Positions 8,280 to 27,764 of a stretch of 33,788 nucleotides of DNA are shown piece by piece. A model generated the notes under the pieces. That model saw only the letters and a program-made list of their open reading frames with translations. It did no database searches and was not told where the DNA came from. How positions within the stretch are numbered: the stretch's first letter is position 1; each line of letters starts with the position of its first letter. Both the position numbers and the translations under genes were made by a program. Source of the stretch: a virus; UHGV virus genome UHGV-0101498. One strand, written 5' to 3'.

Positions 8280-8299
8280 TACTGTAAATATAAACAGTG
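8280..8299. promoter_or_regulatory. LexA (SOS) box tACTGT-N8-ACAGtg upstream of the tum-like operon
   Basis: Seen directly: CTGT(8282-8285)-N8-ACAG(8294-8297), about 42 bp upstream of the ATG at 8341. Confidence 0.7.
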
Positions 8300-8996: not shown

Positions 8997-9078
8997 CGCG
9001 CGCTTGCTCTTGAAATGAGAAAGTTAATTGGTTAACTTTTTAAGCAGGGTCAACGCACTGTTGAGCAAAGGAGTGAGT

Positions 9079-9726: not shown

Positions 9727-10169
9727 TCTCTATACCAAATGAAGATGCTGAAGCTTGGCTATCTACCTTAAAAAAATATCAATCATCAACTATTAAATCC
9801 TTTCTCGAGCAAGGTACGGAAGAGCAAGCTCTTGAATCATGGTTAACAGCTTCAGGCCCAAGTTTAACATCTCCATTTGGAGGGGATGCTTCCAGCATGC
9901 CGGGTAAAAAGGCATTTGTTGATCAGTTTAAGCAAGAGTTTAGAGCTTTTGTTTGTGGAAGCGATAAATATGTCAAAGAGAGGAATGGATTGGGTGAGCT
10001 TGGCGGGGATATTAAAACCTATCTTGTCAGTGTTATTTCAAGTTCAATTGCTACCTCTTTAGGTACTACTACAGTATTTATTGCTCCCGCTGTTGTAATC
10101 ATGCTTATTACGATCTCAAAAATGGGTCTTAATGCGTGGTGTTCATTAGAAACCGTAAAAGACTCTTAA
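9723..10169 (+). CDS. Small protein (148 aa) with a soluble N-terminal region and a C-terminal hydrophobic membrane segment; partner of the protease
   Basis: Start overlaps the protease stop (ATGA); C-terminal stretch YLVSVISSSIATSLGTTTVFIAPAVVIMLITISKMGL is predicted transmembrane. Confidence 0.65.
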   Translation: MISIPNEDAEAWLSTLKKYQSSTIKSFLEQGTEEQALESWLTASGPSLTSPFGGDASSMPGKKAFVDQFKQEFRAFVCGSDKYVKERNGLGELGGDIKTYLVSVISSSIATSLGTTTVFIAPAVVIMLITISKMGLNAWCSLETVKDS

Positions 10170-10200
10170 AAAAACCGCCCATAAGGGCGGTATATTTTTT
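10168..10200. terminator. Bidirectional rho-independent terminator between the protease operon and Q
   Basis: AAAAAAA-CCGCCC-ataa-GGGCGG-tatTTTTTT; hairpin flanked by an A-run and a T-run. Confidence 0.7.
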
Positions 10201-12990: not shown

Positions 12991-13036
12991 GGCACAAACC
13001 TACAGCCTTGAATGAAGGCTTTCCCCGCCTGCGGTT

Positions 13037-13054
13037 TGTGTGGTTGTCGGTACA
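13037..13054. promoter_or_regulatory. Late-promoter activator dyad TGT-N12-ACA (Ogr-type) in the P/O divergent region
   Basis: TGTgtggttgtcggtACA seen directly; 86 bp upstream of the O ATG, the same spacing as the dyad before FI. Confidence 0.5.
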
Positions 13055-13132
13055 AATACCGCGCATTGTTTCACTGCCTCCATCACCGCAACCATAAGGC
13101 TCCAGTAAGTTTTTTCTAACGGAGCACGGCTC

Positions 13133-13966
13133 ATGACAGTGAAAGCAAAGCGTTTTCGCATCGGGGTGGAAGGTGCCACCACCGATGGACGCGAAATCCA
13201 GCGTGAATGGCTGGAACAGATGGCAGCCAGCTACAACCCGGCGGTGTATACCGCGCTGATTAACCTTGAGCACATCAAGTCTTATCTGCCGGACAGCACC
13301 TTTAACCGCTACGGCAAGGTGACGGCGCTGTTTGCTGAAGAAATCACGGAAGGTCCGCTGGCAGGCAAGATGGCGCTGTATGCCGACGTTGAGCCAACGG
13401 AGTCCCTGGTGGAGCTGGTGAAAAAAGGCCAGAAATTATTCACCTCTATGGAAGTCAGCCCGAAGTTCGCTGATACGGGCAAAGCCTACCTGGTCGGCCT
13501 GGCTGCCACTGATGACCCTGCCAGTCTGGGCACTGAAATGCTGACATTCAGCGCCAGTGCAGCCCATAACCCGCTGGCAAACCGCAAGCAGAATCCTGCC
13601 AATCTCTTTACCGCTGCAGAGGAAACGGTGATCGAACTGGAAGAAATCCAGGAGGACAAACCGTCCCTGTTTGCCCGTGTCACGGCGCTGTTCACCAAAA
13701 AAGAGCAGTCCGATGACGCCCGGTTCTCTGATGTGCATAAGGCCGTGGAACTGGTCGCCACTGAGCAGCAGAACCTGAGTGCGCGCACCGAAAAATCCCT
13801 GTCTGAGCAGGAAGAACGCCTGTCTGAGCTGGAGACTGCCCTGCAGGCACAGCTGACCGCCTTTAACGAACTGGTGGACAAGCTGAGCCATGAAGACAGC
13901 CGCCAGGACTACCGCCAGCGTGCAACAGGCGGTAACGCCCCCGCTGACACTCTGACCAATTGCTGA
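13133..13966 (+). CDS. O: Capsid scaffolding protein (P2 gpO-like)
   Basis: Contains RFRIGVEGATTDGREIQ...INLEH...YLVGLAATDDPASLGTE, matching P2 gpO as recalled. Confidence 0.85.
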   Translation: MTVKAKRFRIGVEGATTDGREIQREWLEQMAASYNPAVYTALINLEHIKSYLPDSTFNRYGKVTALFAEEITEGPLAGKMALYADVEPTESLVELVKKGQKLFTSMEVSPKFADTGKAYLVGLAATDDPASLGTEMLTFSASAAHNPLANRKQNPANLFTAAEETVIELEEIQEDKPSLFARVTALFTKKEQSDDARFSDVHKAVELVATEQQNLSARTEKSLSEQEERLSELETALQAQLTAFNELVDKLSHEDSRQDYRQRATGGNAPADTLTNC

Positions 13967-13982
13967 TGGAGCACAAAACCTG

Positions 13983-15041
13983 ATGAAGAAGAATACCCGC
14001 TTTGCTTTTAACGCTTACCTGCAGCAGCTGGCGCGTCTGAACGGTGTGGCAGTTGAAGAACTGTCCAGCAAGTTCACCGTGGAGCCGTCCGTGCAGCAGA
14101 CGCTGGAAGACCAGATCCAGCAATCCGCCGCATTCCTGACGCTGATTAACGTCACGCCAGTGACTGAGCAGTCTGGTCAGTTGCTGGGGCTGGGTGTTGG
14201 CAGCACCATTGCCGGAACCACTGATACCACCGCAAAAGAGCGTGAGCCTGTCGATCCGACGCTGATGGTCGATGTGGAATACAAATGCGAGCAGACCAAC
14301 TTTGACACGGTACTGACCTACGCGAAGCTGGACCTGTGGGCGAAGTTTCAGGATTTCCAGGTGCGCATCCGTGATGCCATCGTGAAACGTCAGGCACTGG
14401 ACCGCATCATGATCGGTTTTAACGGCGTGAAGCGTGCGAAAACCTCCAACCGTAGCGAAAACCCGCTACTGCAGGATGTGAATAAAGGCTGGCTGCAGAA
14501 AATCCGTGAAGATGCACCGGATCACGTCATGGGCAGCACCACCACGGGCGGTGAAACCACACCGGGTGCGGTGAAAGTCGGGAAAGGTGGCGAATATGCC
14601 AACCTGGACGCCGTGGTGATGGATGCCGTCAATGAGCTTATCGATGTGGTCTACCAGGACGATGACGATCTGGTGGTGATTTGCGGTCGTGAACTGCTGT
14701 CTGACAAGTATTTCCCGCTGGTCAACAAAGAGCAGGAAAACAGTGAAAAACTGGCTGCCGATATGATCATCAGTCAGAAACGCATGGGTGGCCTGCAGGC
14801 CGTGCGTGCGCCGTTCTTCCCGCCGAATGCACTGCTGATCACCCGTCTGGATAACCTGTCCATCTACTGGCAGGAAGACACCCGCCGCCGCTCAGTTATC
14901 GACAACCCGAAACGTGACCGGATTGAAAACTTTGAATCCGTTAACGAAGCCTATGTGGTTGAGGACTACCGCTGCGCCGCACTGGTGGAAAACATCCAGA
15001 TTGGCGACTTCAGCGCCGCAGCAGCAGAAACCGGAGCGTAA
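13983..15041 (+). CDS. N: Major capsid protein (P2 gpN-like)
   Basis: TRFAFNAYL...FTVEPSVQQTL...GFNGVKRA...MIISQKR, matching P2 gpN as recalled. Confidence 0.9.
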   Translation: MKKNTRFAFNAYLQQLARLNGVAVEELSSKFTVEPSVQQTLEDQIQQSAAFLTLINVTPVTEQSGQLLGLGVGSTIAGTTDTTAKEREPVDPTLMVDVEYKCEQTNFDTVLTYAKLDLWAKFQDFQVRIRDAIVKRQALDRIMIGFNGVKRAKTSNRSENPLLQDVNKGWLQKIREDAPDHVMGSTTTGGETTPGAVKVGKGGEYANLDAVVMDAVNELIDVVYQDDDDLVVICGRELLSDKYFPLVNKEQENSEKLAADMIISQKRMGGLQAVRAPFFPPNALLITRLDNLSIYWQEDTRRRSVIDNPKRDRIENFESVNEAYVVEDYRCAALVENIQIGDFSAAAAETGA

Positions 15042-15044
15042 TTC

Positions 15045-15695
15045 ATGAGCCTGAGTCCCGCACGGCAGCATCGCCTGCGCGTTCAGGCTGAACAGGCCGC
15101 CCGCGAGGGCGGCAGCGTTCGCCACGCGTCGGGCTATGACCTGATGCTGCTGCAACTGGCGGAAGACCGCCGCCGTCTCAAGGGCGTTCAGTCCACGGTC
15201 AAAAAAGCGGAAATCAAGGTGGAGCTGCTGCCGAAGTACGCCGCCTGGGCAGAGGGTGTCCTGGCTGCCGGAGGCGCTCAACAGGATGACGTGCTGATGT
15301 ACGTGATGCTGTGGCGCATTGATGCCGGAGATTATGCCGGGGCGCTGGAGATCGGGCGTCACGCCCTGCGTCATGGCTGGGTGATGCCGTTAGGTAACCG
15401 CAACGTGCAGACCGTGCTGGCAGAGGAAATGGCAGATGCAGCCCAGAGCGCAATGCTTGCCGCCACCGGCTTTGATGCCGATCTGTTGCTGCAGACCCTG
15501 GAGCTGACAGACGGTATGGATATGCCGGACCAGTCACGGGCGCGTCTGCATAAAGCGATTGGCGCTGTCCTGAGTGAAAGAAATCCGGCGTCTGCCCTTA
15601 ATCATCTCAACCATGCGTTACAGCTCGATCCCCGCTGTGGCGTGAAAAAAGACAAACAGCAGCTGGAGCGCAGACTGCGCAATGACAGCCGCTGA
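15045..15695 (+). CDS. M: Terminase small/endonuclease subunit (P2 gpM-like)
   Basis: Position after N; QDDVLMYVMLWRIDAGDYAGALEIG motif resembles P2 gpM. Confidence 0.8.
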   Translation: MSLSPARQHRLRVQAEQAAREGGSVRHASGYDLMLLQLAEDRRRLKGVQSTVKKAEIKVELLPKYAAWAEGVLAAGGAQQDDVLMYVMLWRIDAGDYAGALEIGRHALRHGWVMPLGNRNVQTVLAEEMADAAQSAMLAATGFDADLLLQTLELTDGMDMPDQSRARLHKAIGAVLSERNPASALNHLNHALQLDPRCGVKKDKQQLERRLRNDSR

Positions 15696-15790
15696 CAGAA
15701 CGTGCCCCCGCGCACGGGCGGCACGGGGTGGCGAAAGGCACTGCCACATCAAAACCCCGTCCACCGCCCTCTATTTCAGGAGAAAGCAGC

Positions 15791-16255
15791 ATGAAGTTTG
15801 TTGCGCCAGAACAGGCACCGGAACAGGCGGAAATCATCAGGAATACGCCGTTCTGGCCTGATGTGGACCTGTCGGAGTTTCGCAGTGTGATGCGCACTGA
15901 CGGCACGGTGACGCAGCCGCGTTTAAAACAGGTTGCCCTGTCGGCAATTTCGGAGGTCAACGCAGAGCTGTATGAGTTTCGCAGACGCCAGCAGATGCTG
16001 GGGTATGCCTCGCTGGCAGAAGTCCCGGCGGAACAACTGGACGGCAAAAGCGAGCGCATTCAGCACTATTTCAACGCGGTTTATTGCTGGGCACGCGCCA
16101 TGCTCAACGAACGTTACCAGGACTATGACGCCACGGCATCCGGTGCGAAGCGAGGCGAGGAACTGGCGGAAGCAAGCGGTGATTTATGGCGTGACGCCCG
16201 CTGGGCCATCAGCCGGGTGCAGGATGCGCCGCACTGCACAGTGGAGCTTATCTGA
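15791..16255 (+). CDS. L: Head completion/stabilisation protein (P2 gpL-like)
   Basis: ATG 15791 with GGAGAAAG RBS; position after M. Confidence 0.75.
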   Translation: MKFVAPEQAPEQAEIIRNTPFWPDVDLSEFRSVMRTDGTVTQPRLKQVALSAISEVNAELYEFRRRQQMLGYASLAEVPAEQLDGKSERIQHYFNAVYCWARAMLNERYQDYDATASGAKRGEELAEASGDLWRDARWAISRVQDAPHCTVELI

Positions 16256-16458
16256 TGAAAGTGCGTGCGCATCAGTATGACACGGTGGACGCACTTTGCT
16301 GGCGTCATTACGGGCGCACGCAGGGTGTCACGGAGCAGGTACTGAAGGCAAATCCGGGGCTTGCCGAATACGGCCCCTTTTTACCTCACGGGCTGCAGGT
16401 GGAGCTGCCGGACATTCCGACAACCACCACCGTGCAGACCGTCCAGCTATGGGACTGA
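16255..16458 (+). CDS. X: Tail protein X (LysM-like), 67 aa
   Basis: QYDTVDALCWRHYGRTQGVTEQVLKANPGLAE, matching P2 gpX as recalled. Confidence 0.8.
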   Translation: MKVRAHQYDTVDALCWRHYGRTQGVTEQVLKANPGLAEYGPFLPHGLQVELPDIPTTTTVQTVQLWD

Positions 16459-16461
16459 ATT

Positions 16462-16677
16462 ATGACGCTTGAGCGAATCAGCGCCTTTATCACGTATTGC
16501 ATCGCCGTCGTGCTGGCCTGGCTGGGCGATTTGTCCATCAAGGATGCCTCAACGCTGGGCGGCCTGATGATCGGTGTGCTGATGCTGGCTATCAACTGGT
16601 ACTACAAACACAAAGCCTACCAGCTTCTGCGCGACGGGCAGATCTCGCGGGAGGACTATGAATCCATCAATCGTTAA
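16462..16677 (+). CDS. Holin (71 aa, predicted transmembrane segments)
   Basis: Small hydrophobic protein immediately 5' of the endolysin, in the P2 gpY position. Confidence 0.65.
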   Translation: MTLERISAFITYCIAVVLAWLGDLSIKDASTLGGLMIGVLMLAINWYYKHKAYQLLRDGQISREDYESINR

Positions 16678-17170
16678 ACGCTGCCTTGTCGGGGCCGTGC
16701 TGGCTATTGCTGCCACGCTGCCGGGGTTTCAGCAGCTTCACACCTCCGAGGAGGGACTGAAACTGATCGCCGATTATGAAGGCTGTCGTCTGCAGCCGTA
16801 TCAGTGCAGCGCGGGTGTCTGGACCGACGGCATTGGTAATACGTCGGGCGTCATTCCCGGCAAAATTATTACGGAACGACAGGCAGCTGAAGGGCTGATC
16901 TCCAACGTGCTACGAGTGGAGCGGGCGCTGGAAAGGTGTGTGAAGCAACAGCCGCCGCAGAAGGTGTATGACGCTACGGTGTCGTTTGCCTTCAACGTGG
17001 GGACGGGCAATGCCTGTAGTTCCACGCTGGTGAAATTGCTCAATCAGCGGCGCTGGGCGGATGCATGCCGACAGTTGCCGCGCTGGGTTTATGTGAAAGG
17101 TGTTTTTAATCAGGGGCTGGATAACCGCCGTGCGCGGGAGATGGCCTGGTGTTTACAGGGAGCAAACTGA
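16658..17170 (+). CDS. K: Endolysin, lysozyme-like (P2 gpK-like), probably a SAR endolysin
   Basis: EGCRLQPYQCSAGVWTDGIGNT lysozyme motif; N-terminal hydrophobic CLVGAVLAIAATLPGF. Confidence 0.85.
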   Translation: MNPSIVKRCLVGAVLAIAATLPGFQQLHTSEEGLKLIADYEGCRLQPYQCSAGVWTDGIGNTSGVIPGKIITERQAAEGLISNVLRVERALERCVKQQPPQKVYDATVSFAFNVGTGNACSSTLVKLLNQRRWADACRQLPRWVYVKGVFNQGLDNRRAREMAWCLQGAN

Positions 17171-17171
17171 A

Positions 17172-17549
17172 ATGAAAAAGAAATTAATCAGCGGACTGTT
17201 TCTGATGTTATGGATGGCGCTGTTAATCGCAGCAATGGTGTATCCGCAGGGGATTTTTCCGGTACTGGCAGCGTCCGGCGTTTGGGTAGCCTGTTTGCTG
17301 ACATGGGCGGTAATTTCGGTAGCACTGGCTGCGTTAATTAAGAATGGCCCGCTCTGGCAGGAGTTAAGGGCATCTTTGCTGAAGACAATTACCCGAAAAG
17401 AAAACGTATTTACCAGTTGGGTGATGCGATTGCTGATTGTTGTAAGTCTCGCCTGGACGGGGTGGGCTATTACCCTGGTCTTTTATCTACTGACCGTTAT
17501 TGCCTTCTGGATCACCCGTAATCAGATGGCGCAACAGGTAGCAGCATGA
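17172..17549 (+). CDS. lysA: LysA-like membrane protein (lysis timing)
   Basis: ATG 17172 after GGGAG; several hydrophobic helices; position after K. Confidence 0.7.
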   Translation: MKKKLISGLFLMLWMALLIAAMVYPQGIFPVLAASGVWVACLLTWAVISVALAALIKNGPLWQELRASLLKTITRKENVFTSWVMRLLIVVSLAWTGWAITLVFYLLTVIAFWITRNQMAQQVAA

Positions 17550-17974
17550 ACCGGTTGCTGCTGGTTGTGCTGACGTTATTACTGGCGGCGCTGGGCTGGC
17601 AGACGTGGCGGCTGGCTGATGCCAGCCAGACCATCAGCACGCAGGCAGACGAGCTGCAGAGCAAAAGCCAGGCACTGGCAAAGAGCAATAGCCAGCTTAT
17701 CAGCCTGTCCATTCTGACTGAAACCAATAACCGGGAGCAGGCGCGGCTCTATGCCGAAGCAGAACAGACCAGCACGCTGCTGAGACAACGACAACACCGG
17801 ATCGAGGAACTGAAACGTGAGAACGAGGATTTACGCCGCTGGGCTGATACTCCTTTGCCTGCTGACATTATCCGGCTGCGGAAACGTCCGGCACTCACCG
17901 GAGGTATGGCTTACCGTCAGTGGTTGTCCGCGAGTGACGCCGTGTCGGCTGGATCAGGCAACGCCGCGCACTAA
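17546..17974 (+). CDS. lysB: LysB, Rz-like inner-membrane spanin
   Basis: N-terminal transmembrane helix then coiled-coil-like region; overlaps the lysA stop. Confidence 0.75.
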   Translation: MNRLLLVVLTLLLAALGWQTWRLADASQTISTQADELQSKSQALAKSNSQLISLSILTETNNREQARLYAEAEQTSTLLRQRQHRIEELKRENEDLRRWADTPLPADIIRLRKRPALTGGMAYRQWLSASDAVSAGSGNAAH

Positions 17975-18107
17975 CGGTGATCTGAACGCGTTGCTGGATG
18001 AAACGGAGGCCGCCTGGGCGGTCTGTGCAGACAAAGTGGACATGATTATTGCGTGTCAGGAGCGAAACAGTGAACAAACCACAATCCCTGCGCCACGCCC
18101 TCAATAA
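17817..18107 (+). CDS. lysC: LysC, Rz1-like outer-membrane lipoprotein spanin, out of frame and overlapping the lysB 3' end
   Basis: Lipobox LTLSGC after a signal peptide; begins inside lysB in another frame and runs past its stop. Confidence 0.7.
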   Translation: MRTRIYAAGLILLCLLTLSGCGNVRHSPEVWLTVSGCPRVTPCRLDQATPRTNGDLNALLDETEAAWAVCADKVDMIIACQERNSEQTTIPAPRPQ

Positions 18108-18501
18108 AGCGGTGCCTTATGTCCGCAATAACCCGGACAAACTGCATCTGTTTGTGGATAACGGTTCGCTGGTTGCCACGGGGGCCAGCTCCATGTCGTG
18201 GGAGTACCGTTACACACTGAACGCGGTGATTGAGGATTTCAGCGGCGACCAGAATCTGCTGATGGCCCCGGTTTTGCTGTGGCTGAGGGATAACCAGCCC
18301 GATGCCATCAATAACCCGGCGTTACGGGAAAAGCTATTCACCTTTGAGGTGGATATTCTGCGCAACGATGTCTGTGATATCAGCCTGAACCTGCAACTGA
18401 CGGAACGTGTGCTGGTCAGCACTGACGGCAGTGTGTCGAGCGTTGAAGCTATAGCGGAACCTGATGCACCTGAAGAAATGTGGACGGTGAAACGTGGCTG
18501 A
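18070..18501 (+). CDS. R: Tail completion protein (P2 gpR-like)
   Basis: GTG 18070 preceded by AGGAGC; LHLFVDNGS...YTLN...DF.GD..LL..PVL.WLR.NQPD, matching P2 gpR as recalled. Confidence 0.8.
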   Translation: MNKPQSLRHALNKAVPYVRNNPDKLHLFVDNGSLVATGASSMSWEYRYTLNAVIEDFSGDQNLLMAPVLLWLRDNQPDAINNPALREKLFTFEVDILRNDVCDISLNLQLTERVLVSTDGSVSSVEAIAEPDAPEEMWTVKRG

Positions 18502-18940
18502 ACTGCAGAAGGTGGACGACTGGCTGAGTGCCTTGCTGGCGAATCTGGAACCAGCCTCGAGAAGCCGCATGATGCGCCAGCTGGCGCAGGAACTTCGCCG
18601 GACACAGCAGCAGAATATCAGGATGCAGCGCAACCCTGACGGCAGCAGCTATGAACCGCGACGGGTAACAGCACGCAGTAAAAAAGGCCGTATCAAACGT
18701 CAGATGTTTGCAAAGCTGCGCACCACAAAATACCTGAAAACTGCCGCCAGCACCGACTCTGCCAGCGTGCAGTTTGAAGGCAAGGTGCAGCGCATTGCCC
18801 GCGTTCACCATTACGGCCTGCGAGATCGCGTCAGTCGTAAGGGACCGGAGGTGCGTTACGCAGAGCGTCGCCTTCAGGGTGTAAATGATGATGTTGAGGC
18901 AATGACCCGCGACATGATTCTGCAATGGCTGGCGGGGTGA
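18494..18940 (+). CDS. S: Tail completion protein (P2 gpS-like)
   Basis: RMMRQLAQELRRTQQQNI...MFAKLRT...RVHHYGLRDRV, matching P2 gpS as recalled. Confidence 0.85.
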   Translation: MAELQKVDDWLSALLANLEPASRSRMMRQLAQELRRTQQQNIRMQRNPDGSSYEPRRVTARSKKGRIKRQMFAKLRTTKYLKTAASTDSASVQFEGKVQRIARVHHYGLRDRVSRKGPEVRYAERRLQGVNDDVEAMTRDMILQWLAG

Positions 18941-18944
18941 TCTT

Positions 18945-18962
18945 TGTATCAGCACTGATACA
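18945..18962. promoter_or_regulatory. Late-promoter activator dyad TGT-N12-ACA upstream of V
   Basis: Palindrome TTGTATCAGCACTGATACAA seen directly, 55 bp before the V ATG. Confidence 0.55.
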
Positions 18963-19008
18963 AGTTGCAGCACTGCCGCCTTTCTTCCCCTGATGGCAAC
19001 CTTTCCCT

Positions 19009-19587
19009 ATGAACGCACAATTAACCGAAATCATGCGCCTTATCACCAACCTGATCCGCACAGGGGTAGTCACCGAAGTGGACAGGGAAAACTGGCTTTG
19101 CCGGGTGAAAACGGGCGAGCTTGAAACCAACTGGATCAGCTGGCTGACGCTGCGTGCCGGGAATGCCCGTACATGGTGGCGACCATCGGAAGGTGAGCAG
19201 GTGGTGCTGCTGAGTCTGGGCGGCAATCTGGAAACCGCCTTTGCGCTGCCCGCTGTCTATTCGAATCAGTTCGCACCACCGTCGACGTCGGCGGACGCCT
19301 GCGTGACAGAACATCCTGACGGTGGCTGGTTTGAATACGAACCCGCCACCGGGCGCTGGTATGTCAGGGGCATCAAATCAATGGTCATTGAGGCTGCTGA
19401 CAACATCACCATGAAAACCAGTGAGTTTGTACTGGAGGCTGACCGCACGCGCATTAACAGCGAAGTGGTGATCAATGGTGGCGTTACCCAGGGCGGCGGA
19501 GCGATGAGTTCTAACGGGATCGTGGTTGATGCGCATCAGCATACTGGCGTCCTGAAAGGCGGCGATACAACCGGAGGCCCGGTATGA
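19009..19587 (+). CDS. V: Baseplate spike/assembly protein (P2 gpV-like)
   Basis: Position and similarity pattern to P2 gpV (WISWLTLRAGNARTWW.PS.GEQV). Confidence 0.85.
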   Translation: MNAQLTEIMRLITNLIRTGVVTEVDRENWLCRVKTGELETNWISWLTLRAGNARTWWRPSEGEQVVLLSLGGNLETAFALPAVYSNQFAPPSTSADACVTEHPDGGWFEYEPATGRWYVRGIKSMVIEAADNITMKTSEFVLEADRTRINSEVVINGGVTQGGGAMSSNGIVVDAHQHTGVLKGGDTTGGPV

Positions 19588-19943
19588 CGCTTTATAGCGG
19601 GATGAACAATACCAGCGGCAAAGTCATTACTGATATTGATCATCTGCGCCAGTCGGTGCGGGACATTCTGCTGACACCGCAGGGTAGCCGTATTGCCCGC
19701 CGGGAATATGGTTCCCTGCTGTCGGCACTGATAGATCAGCCACAAAATCCGGCATTACGCCTGCAGGTCATGTCGGCAGTGTATGTGGCGCTGAGTCGCT
19801 GGGAGCCACGGTTGACGCTGGATTCCATCACCATCAACAGCAATTTTGACGGTTCAATGGTGGTGGAGCTGACCGGGCGGCGGAATAACGGTGTGCCTGT
19901 GTCCCTTTCCGTATCAACAGGAGCAGAGAATGGCAGTGATTGA
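19584..19943 (+). CDS. W: Baseplate protein (P2 gpW-like)
   Basis: 119-aa ORF overlapping the V stop; GP46/W-like pattern. Confidence 0.8.
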   Translation: MTLYSGMNNTSGKVITDIDHLRQSVRDILLTPQGSRIARREYGSLLSALIDQPQNPALRLQVMSAVYVALSRWEPRLTLDSITINSNFDGSMVVELTGRRNNGVPVSLSVSTGAENGSD

Positions 19944-20838
19944 CCTTTCGCAGTTGCCTGCACCGCAGATTGTGGATGTGCCGGACTTTGAGACGCTGCT
20001 TGCCGAACGCAAGGCAGAATTTGTGGCGCTTCATCCGAAAGATAAGCAGGAAGCAGTGATCCGCACGCTGGAACTGGAATCTGAACCCGCCACTAAATTG
20101 TTGCAGGAGAACGCTTACCGTGAGTTGCTTCTGCGCCAGCGCATTAACGAAGCCGCGCAGGCGGTGATGGTGGCTTACGCGATGGGCGGCGATCTTGACC
20201 AGCTCGCTGCCAACTACAACGTGACACGCCTGACGGTGACGCCTGCTGATAATGATGCTGTGCCGCCCGTTGCAGCTGTGATGGAAAGCGATGAAGCGTT
20301 GCGCCTGCGTGTGCCTGCAGCCTTTGAAGGGCTTTCTGTTGCGGGGCCAACTGCAGCTTATGAATTTCATGCCCGAAGCGCCGACGGTCGGGTGGCGGAT
20401 GCCAGTGCAACCAGCCCGGCACCTGCAGAGGTGGTGCTGACTGTCCTTAGCCGCGAAGGCGATGGAACTGCAGAAAAAGACCTGCTGGACGTGGTGGAAA
20501 AAGCTCTGAACAGTGAGAACGTCCGCCCGGTGGCTGACCGTCTTACGGTTCGCAGCGCAGAAATCATCCCGTATCGCGTGGAAGCCACCATTTTTCTCTA
20601 TCCTGGACCGGAAGCAGAGCCGGTAATGGCAGCGGCAAAAGCCAGCCTGCAGAAGTACATCGCCAGTCAGACGCGTCTTGGTCGGGATATTCGCCGTAGC
20701 GCCATCTTTGCCGCCCTGCATGTTGAGGGGGTGCAGCGTGTGGAGCTGGCTTCTCCTCTGGCGGATGTGGTCCTGAACAAAACACAGGCGGCATCATGTA
20801 CGCAGTGGAGCGTAACCAACGGAGGAACGGATGAATAG
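19930..20838 (+). CDS. J: Baseplate wedge protein (P2 gpJ-like)
   Basis: ATG 19930 (MAVIDLS) after GGAG; position after W. Confidence 0.8.
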   Translation: MAVIDLSQLPAPQIVDVPDFETLLAERKAEFVALHPKDKQEAVIRTLELESEPATKLLQENAYRELLLRQRINEAAQAVMVAYAMGGDLDQLAANYNVTRLTVTPADNDAVPPVAAVMESDEALRLRVPAAFEGLSVAGPTAAYEFHARSADGRVADASATSPAPAEVVLTVLSREGDGTAEKDLLDVVEKALNSENVRPVADRLTVRSAEIIPYRVEATIFLYPGPEAEPVMAAAKASLQKYIASQTRLGRDIRRSAIFAALHVEGVQRVELASPLADVVLNKTQAASCTQWSVTNGGTDE

Positions 20839-21436
20839 TCTGCTGCCACCGGGTTCAACACCACTGGAGCGCCGACTGGCGCAAACCTGCAGCGGGATTT
20901 CTGATCTGCAGGTGCCGCTTCGTGACTTGTGGAATCCGGCAACCTGTCCGGTCAGTTTCCTGCCTTATCTCGCCTGGGCGTTCTCTGTGGATCGCTGGGA
21001 CGAGGGCTGGACAGAAAGCGTCAAGCGCCAGGTGGTGAAGGATGCTTTTTATATTCATCAGCATAAAGGGACCACCAGTGCCGTGCGGCGGGTGGTGGAG
21101 CCGTTCGGATTCCTGATCCGCATTATTGAGTGGTGGCAGACCGGAGAAACACCGGGCACGTTTCGCCTGGATATCGGCGTGCAGGACCAGGGCATCACTG
21201 AAGATACCTATCTGGAACTTGAGCGACTGATAAGCGATGCCAAACCATGTAGCCGCCACATGATCGGCATGTCCATCAATCTGCAGACCAGCGGCCCGCA
21301 TTGGGTGGGAGCCGCCAGCTATCTTGGCGAAGAAATCACGATCTATCCGTATATCAACGAAACGATTATTTCCGGTGGCACCGCGCATGAAGGCGGGGCG
21401 GTCCATGTTATTGACACAATGAGAGTGAATCCATGA
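20831..21436 (+). CDS. I: Baseplate/tail protein (P2 gpI-like)
   Basis: Position and length; overlaps the J stop. Confidence 0.75.
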   Translation: MNSLLPPGSTPLERRLAQTCSGISDLQVPLRDLWNPATCPVSFLPYLAWAFSVDRWDEGWTESVKRQVVKDAFYIHQHKGTTSAVRRVVEPFGFLIRIIEWWQTGETPGTFRLDIGVQDQGITEDTYLELERLISDAKPCSRHMIGMSINLQTSGPHWVGAASYLGEEITIYPYINETIISGGTAHEGGAVHVIDTMRVNP

Positions 21437-22896
21437 GCACAAAATTTTATACCCTGCTGACGGATATTGGCGCGGCGAAACTTGCCAGCGCCGCCGCGCT
21501 CGGTGTGCCGCTAAAAATTACCCATATGGCGGTGGGCGATGGCGGTGGAGTATTGCCAACGCCGGACGCAAAGCAGACGGCACTGGTAAATGAGAAACGC
21601 CGGGCTGCGCTGAATATGCTTTATATCGACCCGCAGAACAGCAGCCAGATTATTGCCGAACAGGTGATCCCTGAAAACGAGGGCGGTTGGTGGATACGTG
21701 AAGTGGGCTTGTTTGATGAGTCCGGGGCATTGATTGCCGTGGGCAACTGCCCGGAAAGCTATAAGCCGCAACTGGCTGAAGGTAGCGGGCGCACTCAGAC
21801 CGTGCGCATGGTGCTGATTACCAGCAGCACGGACAATATCACCCTGAAAATCGACCCTGCTGTAGTGCTGGCAACCCGCAAGTATGTGGATGACAAGGCA
21901 CTGGAGCTGAAGGTGTACGCGGATGATCAGATGGCAAAACATCTTGCCGCACCGGACCCGCATTCACAGTACGCGCCAAAAGCCAGCCCGACATTTACCG
22001 GAACCCCCAAAGCGCCAACGCCAGCGGCGGGGAATAATACCACGCAGGTTGCGACCACTGCGTTTGTACAGGCGGCACTGACGGCCCTTATTAATGGTGC
22101 GCCAGCCACGCTGGACACGCTGAAAGAAATAGCCGCAGCCATTAACAATGATCCGAATTTCAGTACCACCATTAACAATGCGCTGGCACTAAAAGCACCG
22201 TTGTCGAGTCCGGCACTCACCGGAACGCCAACAGCCCCCACGGCGGCGCAGTCGGTCAACAATACACAGATTGCCACTACGGCTTTTGTGAAATCGGCGA
22301 TTGCAGGAATGGTGGGTTCTGCACCTGCTGCACTGGATACACTGAACGAACTGGCGGCGGCACTGGGGAATGATCCGAACTTTGCCACGACAATGCTTAA
22401 TGCGCTGGCAGGTAAACAACCGCTGGACAATACGCTTACCAATTTGAGTGGAAAGGATGTAGCTGGTCTTCTCACATACCTTGGTTTAGGAGAAGGCTCA
22501 GCATTGCCTGTTGGCGTACCTGTTCCGTGGCCTTCAGTCACACCGCCAACAGGCTGGCTGAAATGCAACGGTGCAGCTTTTTCTGCCGAAGAGTATCCGG
22601 AACTGGCAAAAGTTTATCCGACAAATAAATTGCCAGATTTACGCGGCGAATTCATTCGTGGGTGGGATGATGGAAGAGGAATTGATTCAGGACGGACTCT
22701 CCTGTCTGCTCAGGACGGGAGCATTGAGGCACACGGCCATGATTACAATGGGGCCATCTATACTTCTAGCGGTCCTTCCTGGGCTAATACGACGGATGCG
22801 GGACACCGGGCATATTCGGGATTTACATCATCATATGGCGGGAGCGAAACCCGTCCACGAAATATTGCATTTAACTATATCGTGAGGGCTGCATAA
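21433..22896 (+). CDS. H: Tail fibre protein (P2 gpH-like), C-terminal tail-collar-type receptor-binding domain
   Basis: N-terminus MSTKFYTLLTDIGAAKLA...MAVGDGGG as in P2 H; internal repeats; C-terminal WLKCNGAAFSAEEYPELAKVYP...LPDLRGEFIRGW. Confidence 0.85.
   Translation: MSTKFYTLLTDIGAAKLASAAALGVPLKITHMAVGDGGGVLPTPDAKQTALVNEKRRAALNMLYIDPQNSSQIIAEQVIPENEGGWWIREVGLFDESGALIAVGNCPESYKPQLAEGSGRTQTVRMVLITSSTDNITLKIDPAVVLATRKYVDDKALELKVYADDQMAKHLAAPDPHSQYAPKASPTFTGTPKAPTPAAGNNTTQVATTAFVQAALTALINGAPATLDTLKEIAAAINNDPNFSTTINNALALKAPLSSPALTGTPTAPTAAQSVNNTQIATTAFVKSAIAGMVGSAPAALDTLNELAAALGNDPNFATTMLNALAGKQPLDNTLTNLSGKDVAGLLTYLGLGEGSALPVGVPVPWPSVTPPTGWLKCNGAAFSAEEYPELAKVYPTNKLPDLRGEFIRGWDDGRGIDSGRTLLSAQDGSIEAHGHDYNGAIYTSSGPSWANTTDAGHRAYSGFTSSYGGSETRPRNIAFNYIVRAA
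21982..22422 (+). repeat. Two tandem repeats of about 73 aa inside the tail fibre gene H (phage-fibre repeat)
   Basis: Translation shows ...TGTPKAPTPAAGNNTTQVATTAFV...DTLKEIAAAINNDPNFSTT... repeated as ...TGTPTAPTAAQSVNNTQIATTAFV...DTLNELAAALGNDPNFATT... Confidence 0.7.
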
Positions 22897-23495
22897 TGGA
22901 TAACGCCGTATTAAATAGCGAGCTTATTGCCACGAAGGCGGGGAATATTACTGTTTATAACTATGATGGTGAGACGCGGGAATATATTTCTGCATCAACT
23001 GAATATCTTGCAGTGGGTGTCGGTATTCCAGCATATTCCTGTTTAGACGCTCCTGGTACATCTAAGGCTGGTTATACAATTTGCCGTTCTGTGGATTTAA
23101 AATCATGGGAATATGTGTCAGACCATCGCGGTGAAATCGTCTATAACACCGAAACGGGAGAATCGAAAGAAATCACAGCTCCGGGTGATTATCCTGAAAA
23201 TACAACCACTATCGCCCCGTTAACGCCATACGATAAATGGGATGGTGAAAAATGGGTGACGGATATCAATGCTCAGCACGTAGCGGAAGTGGAAGCGGCA
23301 GAGCAACAGAAATCTGTGCAGCTTCTGTTCGCAAAGGAAAAGATCATTCTTTGGCAGACTGAATTACAGCTGGGAATTATCAGCGACGAAGATAAAGAAA
23401 AACTAATATCTTGGGTGAACTATATCAAAGCTGTTCAGGCAGTAGATACCCAGAAAGCTCACAATATCATCTGGCCTAAAAAACCATTCATATAA
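22896..23495 (+). CDS. G: Tail fibre assembly chaperone (P2 gpG-like)
   Basis: Immediately follows H with an overlapping start/stop; 199 aa. Confidence 0.8.
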   Translation: MDNAVLNSELIATKAGNITVYNYDGETREYISASTEYLAVGVGIPAYSCLDAPGTSKAGYTICRSVDLKSWEYVSDHRGEIVYNTETGESKEITAPGDYPENTTTIAPLTPYDKWDGEKWVTDINAQHVAEVEAAEQQKSVQLLFAKEKIILWQTELQLGIISDEDKEKLISWVNYIKAVQAVDTQKAHNIIWPKKPFI

Positions 23496-23497
23496 AT

Positions 23498-23522
23498 AAA
23501 CGCCCCTTATGGGGCGTATTTT
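23498..23522. terminator. Bidirectional rho-independent terminator between G and the convergent acyltransferase gene
   Basis: AAACGCCCC-ttat-GGGGCGT followed by ATTTTG. Confidence 0.65.
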
Positions 23523-24676
23523 GCTGCTTGCACGTTATTCTTTGGAAGAATTTTATTTGATAAATAATTGGAAAATTTTATCGCGTTATCATCAATTAGC
23601 AATTTAAAAATTAAAGCTGCAAGTATTGAAGATAATAAAGTGATTGGGAAAGTAATAAGTAAAGACTTTCCGTATGAAACTCCTGCATCACCAAGCTTAA
23701 TTACGATCAAAGAAGATATTGAAGCTATTAATGGAAAATGCACCAGATAAAGAGAGTATGATACATCTCCAAGAAATTTACAGGTTTTTGTTTTGAATAA
23801 ATTTGAGATAACTATTGATTTATCAATTGCTATAATAAGAAACATTGAACCAAAGGCTTGAGAAACAATTCTCAAATCAAAGTAAGTTATGTCACTGTTA
23901 TTTATCCAGATACTATGTTCAGTTATAAAATATGGGTATGAACCTAGGTAACATCCTAGTAAAATAAACATAAAGATAATTGTGGTATTAATTTTCTTTA
24001 TATTAACTGAAACATCTGCACAAATCACCCCTAATATAAATCCTAATAGATGACTTGAGCTAAATACCACAATACCCAAAGTATAAAAAGCAAACCTAAT
24101 TCTGGTAGTGCAAACTAGTGGGACCAGAACGAGTACAAGAATTGAGCCAACCAATTCGGTGTGAATGGTCCATAATACTGGGTTTAATGTTTGAACTCCG
24201 TAAAAATATGTACCAATACCCCCTTCCCATACCGCATTCAGTAATGTCATTGTAGTTGGCATCGCTGGGATTACTTGTGATAAAGAGTACACTGCAGTTT
24301 CTGATGAATGAAATCCAATCGTTGTCATCAGAATAAAGGAAAATATAGTAGATGCAATGGTAGGTATTGCAAGACGTGGGTATCTCTTGATAATGGATTT
24401 AGAGTACCATTCTAGCCCCTTCCCTTTGAAAAAGGGAATCGATAGAACCATTCCACTCAAAACGAAGAAAAGCATTACGGCAAAGTGACCATTATATAAT
24501 ATATTAAATGGAGTTTCACTTATGTATTTCTCTCCATAATGATCTATCTGATTTTGAACAAAAACAGATGGTAGAAAGAATTGCATGAAATGGCTTATTA
24601 AAACTATCAAGCAAGCTATACCACGAATACCATCCAGTGCGTGATCTCGGGAAGGCGTCGTTAATTGTTGAACCAT
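23507..24676 (-). CDS. Integral-membrane acyltransferase (acyltransferase-3/OafA-like); candidate O-antigen or surface-polysaccharide acetyltransferase
   Basis: About 390 aa with about 10 predicted transmembrane helices; N-terminal LDGIRGIA...LISHF motif; AT-rich. Alternative start at 24691. Confidence 0.75.
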   Translation of the reverse strand: MVQQLTTPSRDHALDGIRGIACLIVLISHFMQFFLPSVFVQNQIDHYGEKYISETPFNILYNGHFAVMLFFVLSGMVLSIPFFKGKGLEWYSKSIIKRYPRLAIPTIASTIFSFILMTTIGFHSSETAVYSLSQVIPAMPTTMTLLNAVWEGGIGTYFYGVQTLNPVLWTIHTELVGSILVLVLVPLVCTTRIRFAFYTLGIVVFSSSHLLGFILGVICADVSVNIKKINTTIIFMFILLGCYLGSYPYFITEHSIWINNSDITYFDLRIVSQAFGSMFLIIAIDKSIVISNLFKTKTCKFLGDVSYSLYLVHFPLIASISSLIVIKLGDAGVSYGKSLLITFPITLLSSILAALIFKLLIDDNAIKFSNYLSNKILPKNNVQAAKYAP

Positions 24677-24918
24677 CAATTCCTCACACATTGTAATAAA
24701 GTATTAAAATAAAATAGTAAAAGCAGAATATACAAATACGAAAAGCGGAATTATACTTTACAAGAGTGCTTGATGCTATTGTTTTGTCGAGATTTATAAT
24801 CTGATCTTCTGTAGATGTTGTCCTGGCATTGTCCAATCATGATCTATGGGCTGGCTGGCGAACTTTCGATAGTGCGAGTATTGAATGATTTCCAGCCGTT
24901 ACCGATTTTACGTGTTAA

Positions 24919-25167
24919 TTAGTGAACAAACCACTCGTCAGCAGATTCCCAGGTATCTTTCAGAGTCTCCTGAACAAAAGTTTTTGCAGAATCCTTATCT
25001 GCGGTGCGTGTAACAGAAAGGCCATCGTTGCTGGTGGCTTTTACGATCACCTCTACATCGTCATAACGTTTACTGATGCGTCGGGTTAATTCTTCCTTTA
25101 ACGCATCCACAGCACCGGTTGGCATTTTAGTCATTTTTTCTTTGGCTATGCAGATTTCAATACGCAT
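24919..25167 (-). CDS. DinI-family protein (82 aa)
   Basis: [31 protein letters not shown]...[11 protein letters not shown], strongly DinI-like; GAGGGA RBS. Confidence 0.8.
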
Positions 25168-25180
25168 AAAAGTCCCTCTA

Positions 25181-25200
25181 TACTGTGTTTGTATACAGTA
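25181..25200. promoter_or_regulatory. LexA box TACTGTGTTTGTATACAGTA (near-perfect palindrome) upstream of the DinI-like gene
   Basis: CTGT-N8-ACAG seen directly, 14 bp upstream of the start codon. Confidence 0.75.
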
Positions 25201-25208
25201 TTATTTTT

Positions 25209-25228
25209 AACTGTATGGATAAACAGTG
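25209..25228. promoter_or_regulatory. Second LexA box aACTGTatggataaACAGtg
   Basis: CTGT-N8-ACAG, 8 bp from the first box; abuts the stop of the tyrosine recombinase gene. Confidence 0.6.
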
Positions 25229-25855
25229 TCAAGAGGTCTTATTTCTGCTCCTTTGGAGCTCTTCAAAACGATTATGTAAAGATTTCGGATACAGTTCGGT
25301 ATATACCTGCCATAGCACGTTTAATGAACGATGCCCTGTAACCTGGGCGACTTCCTCAATACTAAAACCAGCCTCAAATAAGCGACTTGCCCCTTCTCTA
25401 CGCAAATCATGGTATCGCAGATCTTTAATACCTAATTTGCTTCTTACCCTCTGGAATCCCGCAGTAACAGAAGTGCTGTTATATGGAAAAATGAATTCTG
25501 ATTTTTTGGGTTGTCGTTGGACGATATCCCAGGCTTCCCCAAGCAAGGCTACTTTCATATGGTTGCCTTCCTTTTTACGTGGATCTTTCCTGTCTCTTAC
25601 GAGTATGGATTTTTGTTCCTGATCGAGATCCTCCCATCGTAATCGGCATACTTCACCGATTCGCATACATGACCACACAGAAAATTTGAGGATATCAACG
25701 AACGGAATTTTTGAGCATTTATGTGTAGATCGTTGTTGAAGACCTTCAATGAGCATGTCCAGTTCATCAGATGCCGGTCTACGATTACGACGATTTGATT
25801 TACCAATTAAACCAACGTTTAAGAAAATGCAGAGGTAACAGCTAACTGGCATCAT
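25229..25855 (-). CDS. Short tyrosine recombinase (catalytic domain only, about 208 aa): FimB/FimE-like switch recombinase or 5'-truncated integrase
   Basis: R (RIGEVCRLR), HxxR (YHDLRREG) and H...Y (GHRSLNVLWQVYTELY) motifs present; no N-terminal core-binding domain; no good RBS. Confidence 0.55.
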   Translation of the reverse strand: MMPVSCYLCIFLNVGLIGKSNRRNRRPASDELDMLIEGLQQRSTHKCSKIPFVDILKFSVWSCMRIGEVCRLRWEDLDQEQKSILVRDRKDPRKKEGNHMKVALLGEAWDIVQRQPKKSEFIFPYNSTSVTAGFQRVRSKLGIKDLRYHDLRREGASRLFEAGFSIEEVAQVTGHRSLNVLWQVYTELYPKSLHNRFEELQRSRNKTS

Positions 25856-25882
25856 CTCCGGTTTTTATTCAGGGGGATGATC

Positions 25883-26449
25883 ATGCTTATTGGCTATGTA
25901 CGCGTGTCAACAAATGACCAGAACACCGATTTGCAACGTAATGCACTGAACTGCGCGGGATGTGAGCGGATTTTTGAGGACAAAATCAGTGGCACTAAGT
26001 CCGACAGACCGGGGCTGAAAAAACTACTCAGGACACTATCGGCAGGAGACACGCTGGTTGTCTGGAAGCTGGACATGTTGGGGCGCAGTATGCGGCATCT
26101 TGTTACGCTGATAGAAGAGTTGCGCCAGCGTGGTGTGAATTTCAGAAGCCTGACTGACAGTATTGATACCAGTACCCCAATGGGCCGTTTCTTTTTTCAT
26201 GTCATGGGTGCCCTGGCTGAAATGGAACGCGAACTGATAGTTGAACGTACCAGGGCAGGGCTGGCTGCAGCTCGTGCCAAAGGCAGAGTAGGTGGACGCC
26301 GTCCTAAGTTGACCACCGAACAGTGGGCACAGATTGGGCGTTTACTCGAGGCCGGAGAATCAATACAGCGTATTGCACTGATTTTTGATGTAGGCGTTTC
26401 TACCATTTATAGAAAATTTCCGGCAAATAAGATCAATGAATCCCCCTGA
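25883..26449 (+). CDS. Serine recombinase, DNA invertase of the Hin/Gin/Pin family (188 aa)
   Basis: MLIGYVRVSTNDQNTDLQRNAL...SLTDSIDTSTPMGRFFFHVMGALAEMERELIVERT with a C-terminal HTH, nearly co-linear with Hin/Gin as recalled; GGGGG RBS 6 nt before the ATG. Confidence 0.85.
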   Translation: MLIGYVRVSTNDQNTDLQRNALNCAGCERIFEDKISGTKSDRPGLKKLLRTLSAGDTLVVWKLDMLGRSMRHLVTLIEELRQRGVNFRSLTDSIDTSTPMGRFFFHVMGALAEMERELIVERTRAGLAAARAKGRVGGRRPKLTTEQWAQIGRLLEAGESIQRIALIFDVGVSTIYRKFPANKINESP

Positions 26450-26497
26450 ATCAGCATTATGTTGATTATCCCTGCAAGCAGACAAATACCGTTATTT

Positions 26498-26515
26498 TGT
26501 GTGAATAACGACACA
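26498..26515. promoter_or_regulatory. Late-promoter activator dyad TGT-N12-ACA upstream of FI
   Basis: TGTgtgaataacgacACA seen directly, 86 bp upstream of the FI ATG. Confidence 0.55.
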
Positions 26516-26591
26516 ACTGCGCTTAGCTGTTTGTCAGGCACAATCACTTCAACATAGGGCGAAGCCTAATCCAATCAGGAGGTTCGCCACT

Positions 26592-27764
26592 ATGGCTCAG
26601 GATTACCACCACGGGGTGCGCGTTGTTGAAGTCAACGAAGGCACCCGATCTATTACCACGGTGAGCACCGCCATCGTGGGTATGGTCTGCACGGGCGATG
26701 ATGCCGATGCAAAAATGTTTCCTCTTAATAAACCCGTGCTGATCACTGATGTGCTGACTGCCAGCGGTAAAGCGGGTGAGTCAGGTACTCTGGCCCGTTC
26801 GCTGGATGCCATCGCTGACCAGGCAAAACCCGTGACCATTGTTGTGCGTGTGCCGCAGGGTGAAACGGAAGACGAAACCACGACCAATATCATCGGCGCA
26901 GTGACTGCTGAAGGTAAAAAAACAGGTATGAAAGCCCTGTTATCTGCCCAGTCACAGCTCGGCGTTAAACCGCGCATTCTCGGCGTGCCAGGCCACGACA
27001 CCAAGGCGGTAGCTACTGAGTTGCTGAGCGTGGCGCAAAGCCTGCGTGGATTTGCTTACCTGTCAGCGTATGGCTGCAAGACAGTGCAGGAGGCGATCAC
27101 TTACCGCGAAAACTTCAGCCAGCGCGAAGGGATGCTGATCTGGCCTGACTTTACTGGCTGGGACACGGTGCTGAATGCCGAAGCAACGGCATATGCCACC
27201 GCCCGTGCGCTTGGTCTGCGCGCCAAAATTGACGAGCAGACCGGATGGCACAAAAGCCTGTCCAACGTGGGCGTGAACGGTGTCACCGGAATTTCTGCAG
27301 ATGTGTTCTGGGATCTGCAGGACCCGGCAACCGATGCAGGTCTGCTGAACCAGAACGACGTCACCACGCTTGTGCGTAAAGACGGTTTCCGCTTCTGGGG
27401 TTCCCGCTGCCTGAGTGATGACCCGCTCTTTGCCTTCGAAAACTACACCCGCACGGCGCAGGTGCTGATGGACACGATGGCAGAAGCACACATGTGGGCG
27501 GTGGATAAACCGCTTAACCCGTCGCTGGCCCGCGACATTATCGAAGGTATCCGCGCCAAAATGCGCAGCTTGGTCAGTCAGGGCTATCTCATTGGTGGTG
27601 ATTGCTGGCTGGATGAGTCGGTGAACGACAAAGACACACTGAAAGCCGGAAAACTCACCATCGACTACGACTACACGCCAGTGCCGCCACTTGAAAACCT
27701 GATGCTGCGTCAGCGCATCACCGATCAGTACCTGGTGAATTTCGCCAGCCAGGTCAGCGCGTAA
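26592..27764 (+). CDS. FI: Contractile tail sheath protein (P2 gpFI-like)
   Basis: 390 aa; position and P2 FI-like pattern. Confidence 0.9.

Follow-up and report, generated by a model that had tools for sequence, protein, structure and literature searches.

The closest described relatives of the locus reported here are the invertible tail-fibre segments of the Din family (G/Gin of Mu, C/Cin of P1, P/Pin of e14 and those of E. coli prophages; PMC4134206, PMC4272514). Strands are exchanged at the central dinucleotide of their crossover sites, the alternative orientation was seen in roughly half of the long reads from the prophages of E. coli EC958, and invertases act in trans on prophages whose own invertase gene is defective (PMC4134206). 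For P2-like prophages of enteropathogenic E. coli, active flipping has been shown (PMC4272514). The Z/fun hotspot of P2-like phages, between the tail-fibre assembly gene G and the tail sheath gene FI, is a mixed-purpose locus in which invertases and local inversions are frequent (bioRxiv 10.1101/2024.10.15.618418). Nilsson et al. (2004) proposed, according to the account given in PMC8987985, that fun is exchanged site-specifically at inverted repeats. Here we describe the G-FI interval of a P2-like prophage, UHGV virus genome UHGV-0101498, of which the whole 33,788-nt stretch was analysed (the window). Positions are window coordinates unless assigned to one of the compared loci, which are numbered L001 onwards.

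We conclude, with a probability of about 0.8, that the island between G and FI is an invertible tail-fibre segment whose contents were replaced, through the crossover sites of a DNA invertase, by the right arm of a prophage residing at dusA. The interval (23496–26591) measures 3096 bp. A preliminary description, drawn up from the letters of the sequence, had taken it for the Z/fun hotspot of P2, and rightly so: the reference P2 annotation has fun(Z) between G and FI, on the minus strand, and the hotspot is described at this place (bioRxiv 10.1101/2024.10.15.618418). The open reading frames (ORFs) agree with the ~3.1-kb length, the three minus-strand genes and the plus-strand invertase that it listed, and Pfam returned the same four families. 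Its AT-rich left part is also seen, with a guanine-plus-cytosine (GC) content of 27–38% over ~23450–24800 versus ~55% in the flanking phage DNA. By size, the only property compared, none of the four island ORFs corresponds to fun(Z) (528 amino acids, aa).

The captured DNA lies between two inverted crossover sites

The captured DNA is bounded by two 26-bp sites (Table 1). The left site reads TTCTCACATACC-TT-GGTTTAGGAGAA, with its core TT at 22481–22482, and spans H codons 346–354; inversion there is in frame, but joins H to integrase codons. When seven loci were aligned, relationships were found to switch exactly at this core: to its left the window groups with P2-like phages, and to its right it is identical to L003, L008, L033 and L027 and unlike Escherichia phage 500465-1 (L001). 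The right site reads ACCAATTAAACC-AA-CGTTTAAGAAAA, with its core AA at 25814–25815. The intact integrase gene of the donor has ACCAATTAAACC-AA-GTTTAAGTAGAT at this position, and L001 has TTCTCCCAAACC-AA-CGTTTAAGAAAA directly 5' of its invertase gene. Comparison of the window, donor integrase and L001 sequences therefore places the right breakpoint within AAACCAA (25809–25815), which includes the core AA. The two sites are inverted with matching cores (TT and AA), as those of a Din-type segment are, and the site form fits the EC958 prophage table and the Sandmeier consensus (PMC4134206). At the right site, the inner half agrees with the consensus at only 6 of 10 positions. That the island ends at crossover sites of an invertase points to a particular mechanism of capture, which the preliminary description did not include.

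The captured block matches the right end of a dusA prophage

Window 22470–25823 is 99.8% identical to positions 8671–12023 of L003. This locus is the right-hand end of a prophage of the Mu-tail type that is integrated at dusA in E. coli WP4-S18-ESBL-09. The order in L003 is tail fibre, tail-fibre assembly, acyltransferase, capsid-gene relic, DinI, a 365-aa integrase and dusA; the block found in the window comprises the last 138 codons of H, all of G, the acyltransferase gene, dinI and the 3' half of the integrase gene. This match indicates that the block arrived contiguous, from one kind of donor. The preliminary description had spoken of four unrelated cargo genes. That view did not hold, as three of the four form one block from one kind of donor and the fourth, the invertase gene, is resident (see below). 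It had also begun the island at 23496. The four genes do lie where it placed them, but the foreign DNA starts further left, at 22470–22483 (inside H) when the window is compared with the donor and at 23303 (inside G) when it is compared with the closest ordinary relative.

The module of fibre tip, tail-fibre assembly gene (tfa) and acyltransferase gene, which extends to 24911, is likewise found at the end of a prophage of a third kind (L004), and the G protein of the window (WP_069904755.1) is also that of L003, L004 and L033. Matches to the dinI-integrase module (L002, L005) begin at 24849 and the L004 match stops at 24911, which leaves a 63-bp joint of the two modules. The integrase belongs to the dusA-associated family (PMC4482086), and the dinI-integrase arm is also present in mEp460, where the integrase is annotated as Rci-like, and in many Stx phages. 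In a variant dusA prophage (L005) the place of the acyltransferase gene is taken by a standard invertible segment and a pin gene. In L003, a donor without an invertase, the first inner position of the fibre-gene site (8670–8695) has changed from G to A (TT-AGTTTAGGAGAA), which may reflect relaxed constraint on an unused site.

The integrase half-site recurs with five partners, and the cassette is flipped in another backbone

Further loci were gathered by pattern scans and exact-protein look-ups, and their junctions are given as they stand on the coding strand of the integrase gene. The 208-aa recombinase ORF of the window had no exact match on record, and the 175-aa form gave matches. In intact integrase genes (L003, L005, L011, L013, L016) the sequence GGTTTAATTGGT is preceded by ATCTACTTAAAC-TT. 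It is preceded by TTTTCTTAAACG-TT in the window, by GGATAAAAAACC-TT in L006 and L012, which represent a second P2-like phage (84% nucleotide identity in the FI region), by TTCTCACATACC-TT, the outer half of the P2 H site, in L007, and by CTCTCGAAAACC-TT, the outer half of a Mu-tail fibre-gene site, in L008. L033, in the finished chromosome NZ_AP021894.1, is another Mu-like-tail prophage; there the other strand reads ACCAATTAAACC-AA-CCTTTTTTATAA, followed by the gene for a 182-aa invertase and by yciI, and the locus was recognised as a hybrid because its match stopped 3 bases early. The integrase-derived half-site is joined at one dinucleotide to five different partners, all of them crossover half-sites, and past AAACC these partners have no further similarity to the integrase gene. 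A broader junction pattern (SS for CS) found nothing new in viral contigs.

The cassette itself is 99.9–100% identical among the window, L008 and L033, and the identity ends at the two sites; the invertase genes of the three loci are only ~67–81% identical at the nucleotide level and their backbones differ. In L008 the fibre constant region and TTCTCCTAAACC-AA-CGTTTATAAAAA enclose the cassette in flipped orientation, and the half-sites are arranged exactly as expected of an inversion product. The first 8.4 kb of L007, a metagenome contig, are 97% identical to window 14881–22488. There the H constant region is joined at the core to the integrase fragment in an open frame of 544 aa, and in-silico inversion of window 22483–25813 gives a 544-aa product that has 537 of its 544 residues as in L007.

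L006 (8599–11461) has the same end of dinI and truncated integrase gene (int'). Between this end and tfa lie the gene of a second invertase with an altered N-terminus, an IS5-family transposase gene and a different AT3 acyltransferase gene, frameshifted in appearance; a DNA methyltransferase gene stands between invertase and FI.

An invertase shared with ordinary P2-like relatives

The flanks of the island match P2-like phages, L001 among them, at 95–99%. In the ordinary relatives L001, L023, L026 and L027 the order is G, inverted tfa', inverted fibre tip, invertase and FI, and this content of the interval is a host-range switch of the Mu-G-segment type. Their site pairs are TTCTCACATACC-TT-GGTTT(G/A)GGAGAA and TTCTCCCAAACC-AA-CGTTTAAGAAAA; the site inside H of L001 reads TTCTCACATACC-TT-GGTTTGGGAGAA, and the site beside its invertase gene is inverted relative to it. 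Reference P2, which has no invertase, carries a single gix-like site inside H (TTATCGAATATC-TC-GGTTTACAGGAA; L035 358–383), which is consistent with the fun(Z) locus having once held an invertible segment.

In the assembly collection, 114 blocks are indexed for a protein identical to the 188-aa invertase of the window, and 25 of the carrier contigs were read. It occurs in ordinary P2-like prophages with standard segments (L023, L026, L027) and in L030–L032, where the fibre tip is in the flipped orientation, and its upstream half-site and downstream DNA are present in ordinary P2-like prophages as well. The invertase gene, including its 5' part, and its flanks are 99.7–100% identical to those of ordinary relatives. 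The closest of these, L027, is 99.5% identical to the window over 18339–23302 and 99.9% identical from 25809 onward. On these comparisons we regard the invertase as resident, not cargo.

The protein matches the structures of Mu Gin (3uj3, 4m6f) with E=1e-90 over 184 residues and has the Ser nucleophile motif GYVRVST. It has Met65 (KLD-M-LGR) at the position of the catalytic Arg (KLD-R-LGR) of Gin (R65) and of the gamma-delta and Tn3 resolvases (R68). The R68A and R68K changes in Tn3 resolvase abolished recombination and lowered cleavage at least 1000-fold (PMC2794168). Because Met replaces the catalytic Arg, we expect the resident Met65 invertase, by analogy with these mutants, to be inactive. 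Either the capture predates the Arg-to-Met change or another invertase acted in trans. The possibility that the change arose after the capture and locked the segment in the fibre-ON state was considered and ruled out, as the identical protein is also found in ordinary prophages with segments in either orientation; the change may nonetheless inactivate the enzyme.

Table 1. Features of the H-FI region in the window
Feature	Position	Strand	Basis or remark
Tail-fibre gene H (487 aa)	21433–22896	+	ORF; PF12571, PF07484
H constant part, codons 1–350, P2-like (rest of H carried by the cassette)			Alignment; switch at site core
Left 26-bp crossover site, pixL	22469–22494		Constant/variable junction of H
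H variable C-terminal part (Collar domain), cassette start	22483–22896	+	Same in L003, L008, L033, L027; L001 differs at many positions
G, tail-fibre assembly chaperone (199 aa)	22896–23495	+	PF02413
Bidirectional terminator-like hairpin	23500–23517		Between G and acyltransferase gene
AT3-family membrane O-acyltransferase	23507–24691	-	PF01757, E=6e-27; phrog_3333
63-bp joint of two modules	24849–24911		RefSeq label: capsid-gene relic (pseudogene)
DinI-like gene (82 aa)	24919–25167	-	PF06183, E=1e-19
dinI promoter region	25183–25232	-	TTGACA and two perfect LexA boxes
Tyrosine-recombinase ORF, catalytic domain only	25229–25855	-	PF00589, E=3e-21
Integrase remnant proper (codons 172–365 of dusA-type integrase)	25229–25813	-	Protein comparison
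Hybrid right crossover site	25802–25827		Inner half: donor integrase; outer half: resident, beside invertase
Gin-like serine DNA invertase (188 aa)	25883–26449 (ORF opens 25877)	+	PF00239, PF02796
FI, tail sheath gene	26592–27764	+	Right flank; unchanged P2-like backbone

Genes carried by the island

The acyltransferase has PF01757 over residues 17–361 and ~9–10 hydrophobic segments, and it falls into a PHROG O-acetyltransferase family (phrog_3333). RefSeq-style annotation starts the gene at 24676, which gives 389 aa, and its GC content is ~30–38%. The gene is present in 11 of 5,426 complete E. coli genomes, in copies that are all at least 99.7% identical, each of them 3' of prophage fibre genes and in three other backbones. 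The protein belongs to a cluster of 130. Relatives at 82, 68 and 57% identity come next, after which only generic "OafA/YrhL" proteins were found, at no more than 40% identity; within the AT3 family the enzyme is thus a rare orphan. By analogy with its family, the enzyme probably O-acetylates a surface glycan in the lysogen, a form of lysogenic conversion. No consensus minus-strand promoter was found directly upstream of the gene, and a PADLOC search for a defence role left both the acyltransferase and dinI without a match.

The island dinI is 97–99.8% identical to the dinI beside the integrase gene in mEp460 and in dusA prophages; for integrase fragment and dinI, identity to those beside dusA (L003, L005) and in mEp460 is 97.6–99.8%. 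The LexA boxes of dinI (CTGT-N8-ACAG; 25183–25198 and 25211–25226) are two of only three perfect ones in the whole window, and because they overlap the TTGACA promoter the gene is probably SOS-induced. Its product scores 73 bits against the 111-bit NCBIfam equivalog cut-off for chromosomal DinI and is therefore classed as a paralogue. The P2 backbone has a further DinI-like gene at ~8540–8773 (PF06183, E=1e-22), with a perfect LexA box, CTGTAAATATAAACAG, at 8282–8297, so that with the island copy the prophage has two DinI paralogues. In L007 dinI (9032–9268) has a premature stop (78 versus 82 codons), and the 270 bp of AT-rich DNA past it have no match among the fetched loci.

The recombinase ORF is the 3' 53% of the 365-aa integrase gene (residues 172–365). 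From residue 173 on, all 193 of 193 residues are as in the L003 integrase, and the start of the ORF is an accidental ATG at 25855 that comes from the invertase side of the junction. The same fragment is a pseudogene in the RefSeq annotation of NZ_AP021894.1. The "short tyrosine recombinase" of the preliminary description was thus correct as a family assignment and mistaken as a standalone gene; it is a truncated gene, and the fragment is probably inert. Because it holds residues 172–365 only, with neither an attachment site nor dusA, it is not the integrase of this prophage, whose P2-type integrase gene lies at 691–1899.

Elsewhere in the window, A and the portal gene are separated by the old/tin hotspot, which holds genes for a 232-aa trypsin-like protease and for a partner of 148 aa (9028–10169). 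The pair matches the PADLOC candidate defence pair PDC-M35A/PDC-M35B with E=1.5e-91 and 6e-57, respectively.

Distribution of the arrangement

Neither the 5,426 complete E. coli genomes nor 50,697 phage records contained the window arrangement, which is uncommon and uncharacterised. The complete genomes contained neither the window-type nor the L008-type junction. The arrangement was found in roughly 20 draft or metagenome contigs. One of them, an ENA contig (L018), matches the window at 100% identity over 21.5 kb, and an independent NCBI assembly (L019) is 99.2% identical with the same arrangement. Because these two agree with the window, its arrangement is not an assembly artefact.

In L025 and L028 IS1 lies in the island dinI, joined at window 25053, and it probably interrupts dinI in the L021 group as well (the L021 contig stops at window 25062). 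All of window 9002–25053 is gone from L025, and in L028 host amino-acid decarboxylase genes abut IS1. L025 and L028 are decaying derivatives of the same hybrid prophage, as the L021 group probably is. Two contigs of one sample (ENA ERZ19693119) show other joins: in L020, H, G and the acyltransferase gene (to 24911) are joined to host ybhB-bioA, and in L029 a pin-ynaE prophage end is joined to window 24852 onward (dinI, int', invertase, FI). These contigs have a 60-bp joint in common; either the rearrangement is real or the assembly crossed over at a repeat.

Proposed origin and alternatives

The starting lineage would have had a segment of the Mu-G-segment type between H and FI, with a Gin-like invertase gene beside FI. 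A Din invertase would then have recombined a genuine crossover site with a weak quasi-site in the integrase gene of a dusA prophage, truncating that gene and yielding a cassette bounded by a fibre-gene site and a hybrid site. It is the junctions, not the quality of the site, that argue for use of the quasi-site. The ~3.35-kb cassette would next have replaced the contents of the segment, from the core at 22481–22482 to the core at 25814–25815. It may have entered by site-specific exchange at both ends, for example through two successive inversions between prophages of one chromosome, or by site-specific exchange on the right and homologous recombination in the shared fibre-tip/tfa DNA on the left. 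The latter route would be fully sufficient for the window because L027 shares its DNA up to 23302. Once formed, the cassette would have been an exchangeable, invertible unit and moved into several invertase-bearing prophage backbones. The segment of the window would now flip rarely if at all, and only with an active invertase supplied in trans.

Several observations weigh against this origin. The integrase quasi-site agrees with the consensus at 6/10 positions in each of its two halves, comparable matches occur elsewhere in the donor, and by consensus score it is not distinguishable from the donor background. The catalytic residue set of the resident invertase is incomplete. The left junction is equally explicable by homologous recombination, L027 being the same up to 23302. 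Because its contig stops 270 bp past dinI, L007 could be either a flipped cassette or the product of an inversion between two prophages, although both readings require recombination at the integrase-derived half-site. The H::integrase fusion had no full-length match in a collection of 5.8 billion proteins, no flipped copy was found on the exact backbone of the window, and the reciprocal junction (pix inner half, AA and the 5' side of the integrase gene) occurred 0 times in viral and genome contigs.

A quasi-site that is poor by consensus, together with a resident invertase that lacks the catalytic Arg, would also suit a right junction made by illegitimate or microhomology joining (replication slippage, RecA-independent) on AAACCAA...GTTTAAG, where the parental sequences agree at 14 of 15 bases and the invertase site would be a coincidence. 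We consider such an origin improbable, since the integrase gene meets five partners at one dinucleotide, each a genuine crossover half-site and each unlike the integrase gene past AAACC, and since inversion products with exact reciprocal half-sites exist. Separate insertions of four unrelated morons would be in keeping with a recognised mixed-purpose hotspot (bioRxiv 10.1101/2024.10.15.618418), with the heterogeneous base composition and with acyltransferase and dinI-integrase modules that occur apart elsewhere and meet here at the 63-bp joint. However, the invertase gene and its flanks are 99.7–100% as in ordinary relatives, the other three genes are collinear with fibre tip and G and 99.8% identical to a single donor arrangement, and the recombinase is a fragment, so that a piecemeal assembly of the island seems very improbable.

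Prophages of the P2-like and dusA kinds share tail-fibre repeats, from which an assembler could in principle have built a chimera, and the L020/L029 contig pair, from one metagenome sample, joins at its 60-bp shared stretch possibly in just this way. We give this explanation hardly any credence for the window: the junction is present in the independent isolate assemblies L019, L025 and L028 and in the metagenomes L018/L024 and L029, other hybrids of the same integrase half-site are found in the finished chromosome NZ_AP021894.1 and in other contigs, and the 7 bp of sequence shared at the junction are far under assembler k-mer sizes.

Replacement of the segment contents through the crossover sites, our preferred origin, can be extended to a wider proposal, about which we are doubtful: Din invertases would form a general system of gene capture and cassette exchange through quasi-sites, and the 3.3-kb segment of the window would be a phase-variable switch. 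If this were true, arbitrary neighbouring DNA, such as genes for a lipopolysaccharide-type acyltransferase and an SOS modulator, could be picked up through quasi-sites outside fibre genes, and a portable invertible cassette would cross phage families (P2-like and at least two Mu-tail types). One state of the switch would provide a working fibre; the other would have the H::integrase fusion and no infectious virions, and would put dinI and the acyltransferase gene under late transcription.

The locus offers a natural case, at the sequence level, of cargo gain at a hotspot in which donor, recipient, both breakpoints and several derived states can be identified. It suggests that fibre invertases may mobilise non-fibre genes, with lysogenic-conversion and SOS-modulating functions, between unrelated prophages; if general, this would add a further, site-specific source of phage mosaicism to homologous and illegitimate recombination. 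It also calls for caution in annotation, as "short recombinase" ORFs beside invertases can be capture scars. Because the pairing of fibre tip and acyltransferase recurs in four prophage backbones, it would be worthwhile to test whether adsorption specificity and receptor modification are functionally linked.

Comparison with known systems

With the Din-family segments the window shares an adjoining Gin-like invertase gene, inverted 26-bp sites with complementary cores, a left site where the constant part of the fibre gene meets the variable part, and a segment that contains a fibre tip and its chaperone. It differs from them in having an acyltransferase gene, dinI and int' where a second fibre tip and chaperone would be, in a right site that is hybrid with a non-consensus inner half, in giving an H::integrase fusion and not a second fibre when flipped, and in the Met at the catalytic Arg position. 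Iida and Hiestand-Nauer reportedly described, in 1986/1987, that Cin uses quasi-sites selected by their central dinucleotide, in laboratory events on P1 and plasmids. As in those events, a poor secondary site that shares the central dinucleotide would have given a hybrid site and a rearrangement, but the product in the window is natural, bears cargo and has spread among prophage families. Titles cited in PMC4134206 attest to work on Cin quasi-sites.

The integrase fragment and dinI resemble in sequence those of prophages with dusA-associated integrases, a family for which an Rci-like annotation, as in the mEp460 record, has been described (PMC4482086), whereas in the window the N-terminal DNA-binding domains, the attachment site and dusA are gone. 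The acyltransferase shares PF01757, a multi-spanning topology and low GC content with the Sf6 Oac/OafA type, and the donor gene lies between fibre genes and int. Phage-encoded AT3 O-antigen acetyltransferases include Sf6 Oac and OafA-type enzymes. Unlike these, the island enzyme has no characterised close homologue, and outside its small E. coli cluster identity does not exceed 40%.

The P2 Z/fun hotspot, as far as the accounts cited at the outset describe it, is like the present locus in its G-FI position, in cargo flanked by inverted repeats or invertase sites, and in the frequency of invertases and inversions. The window is unlike it in the nature of the cargo, in an identifiable donor (the right arm of a dusA prophage) and in one boundary that lies inside an integrase gene. 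Cassette exchange by Din invertases at Z/fun is of a known kind, and the enlarged, cargo-bearing derivative described here is new.

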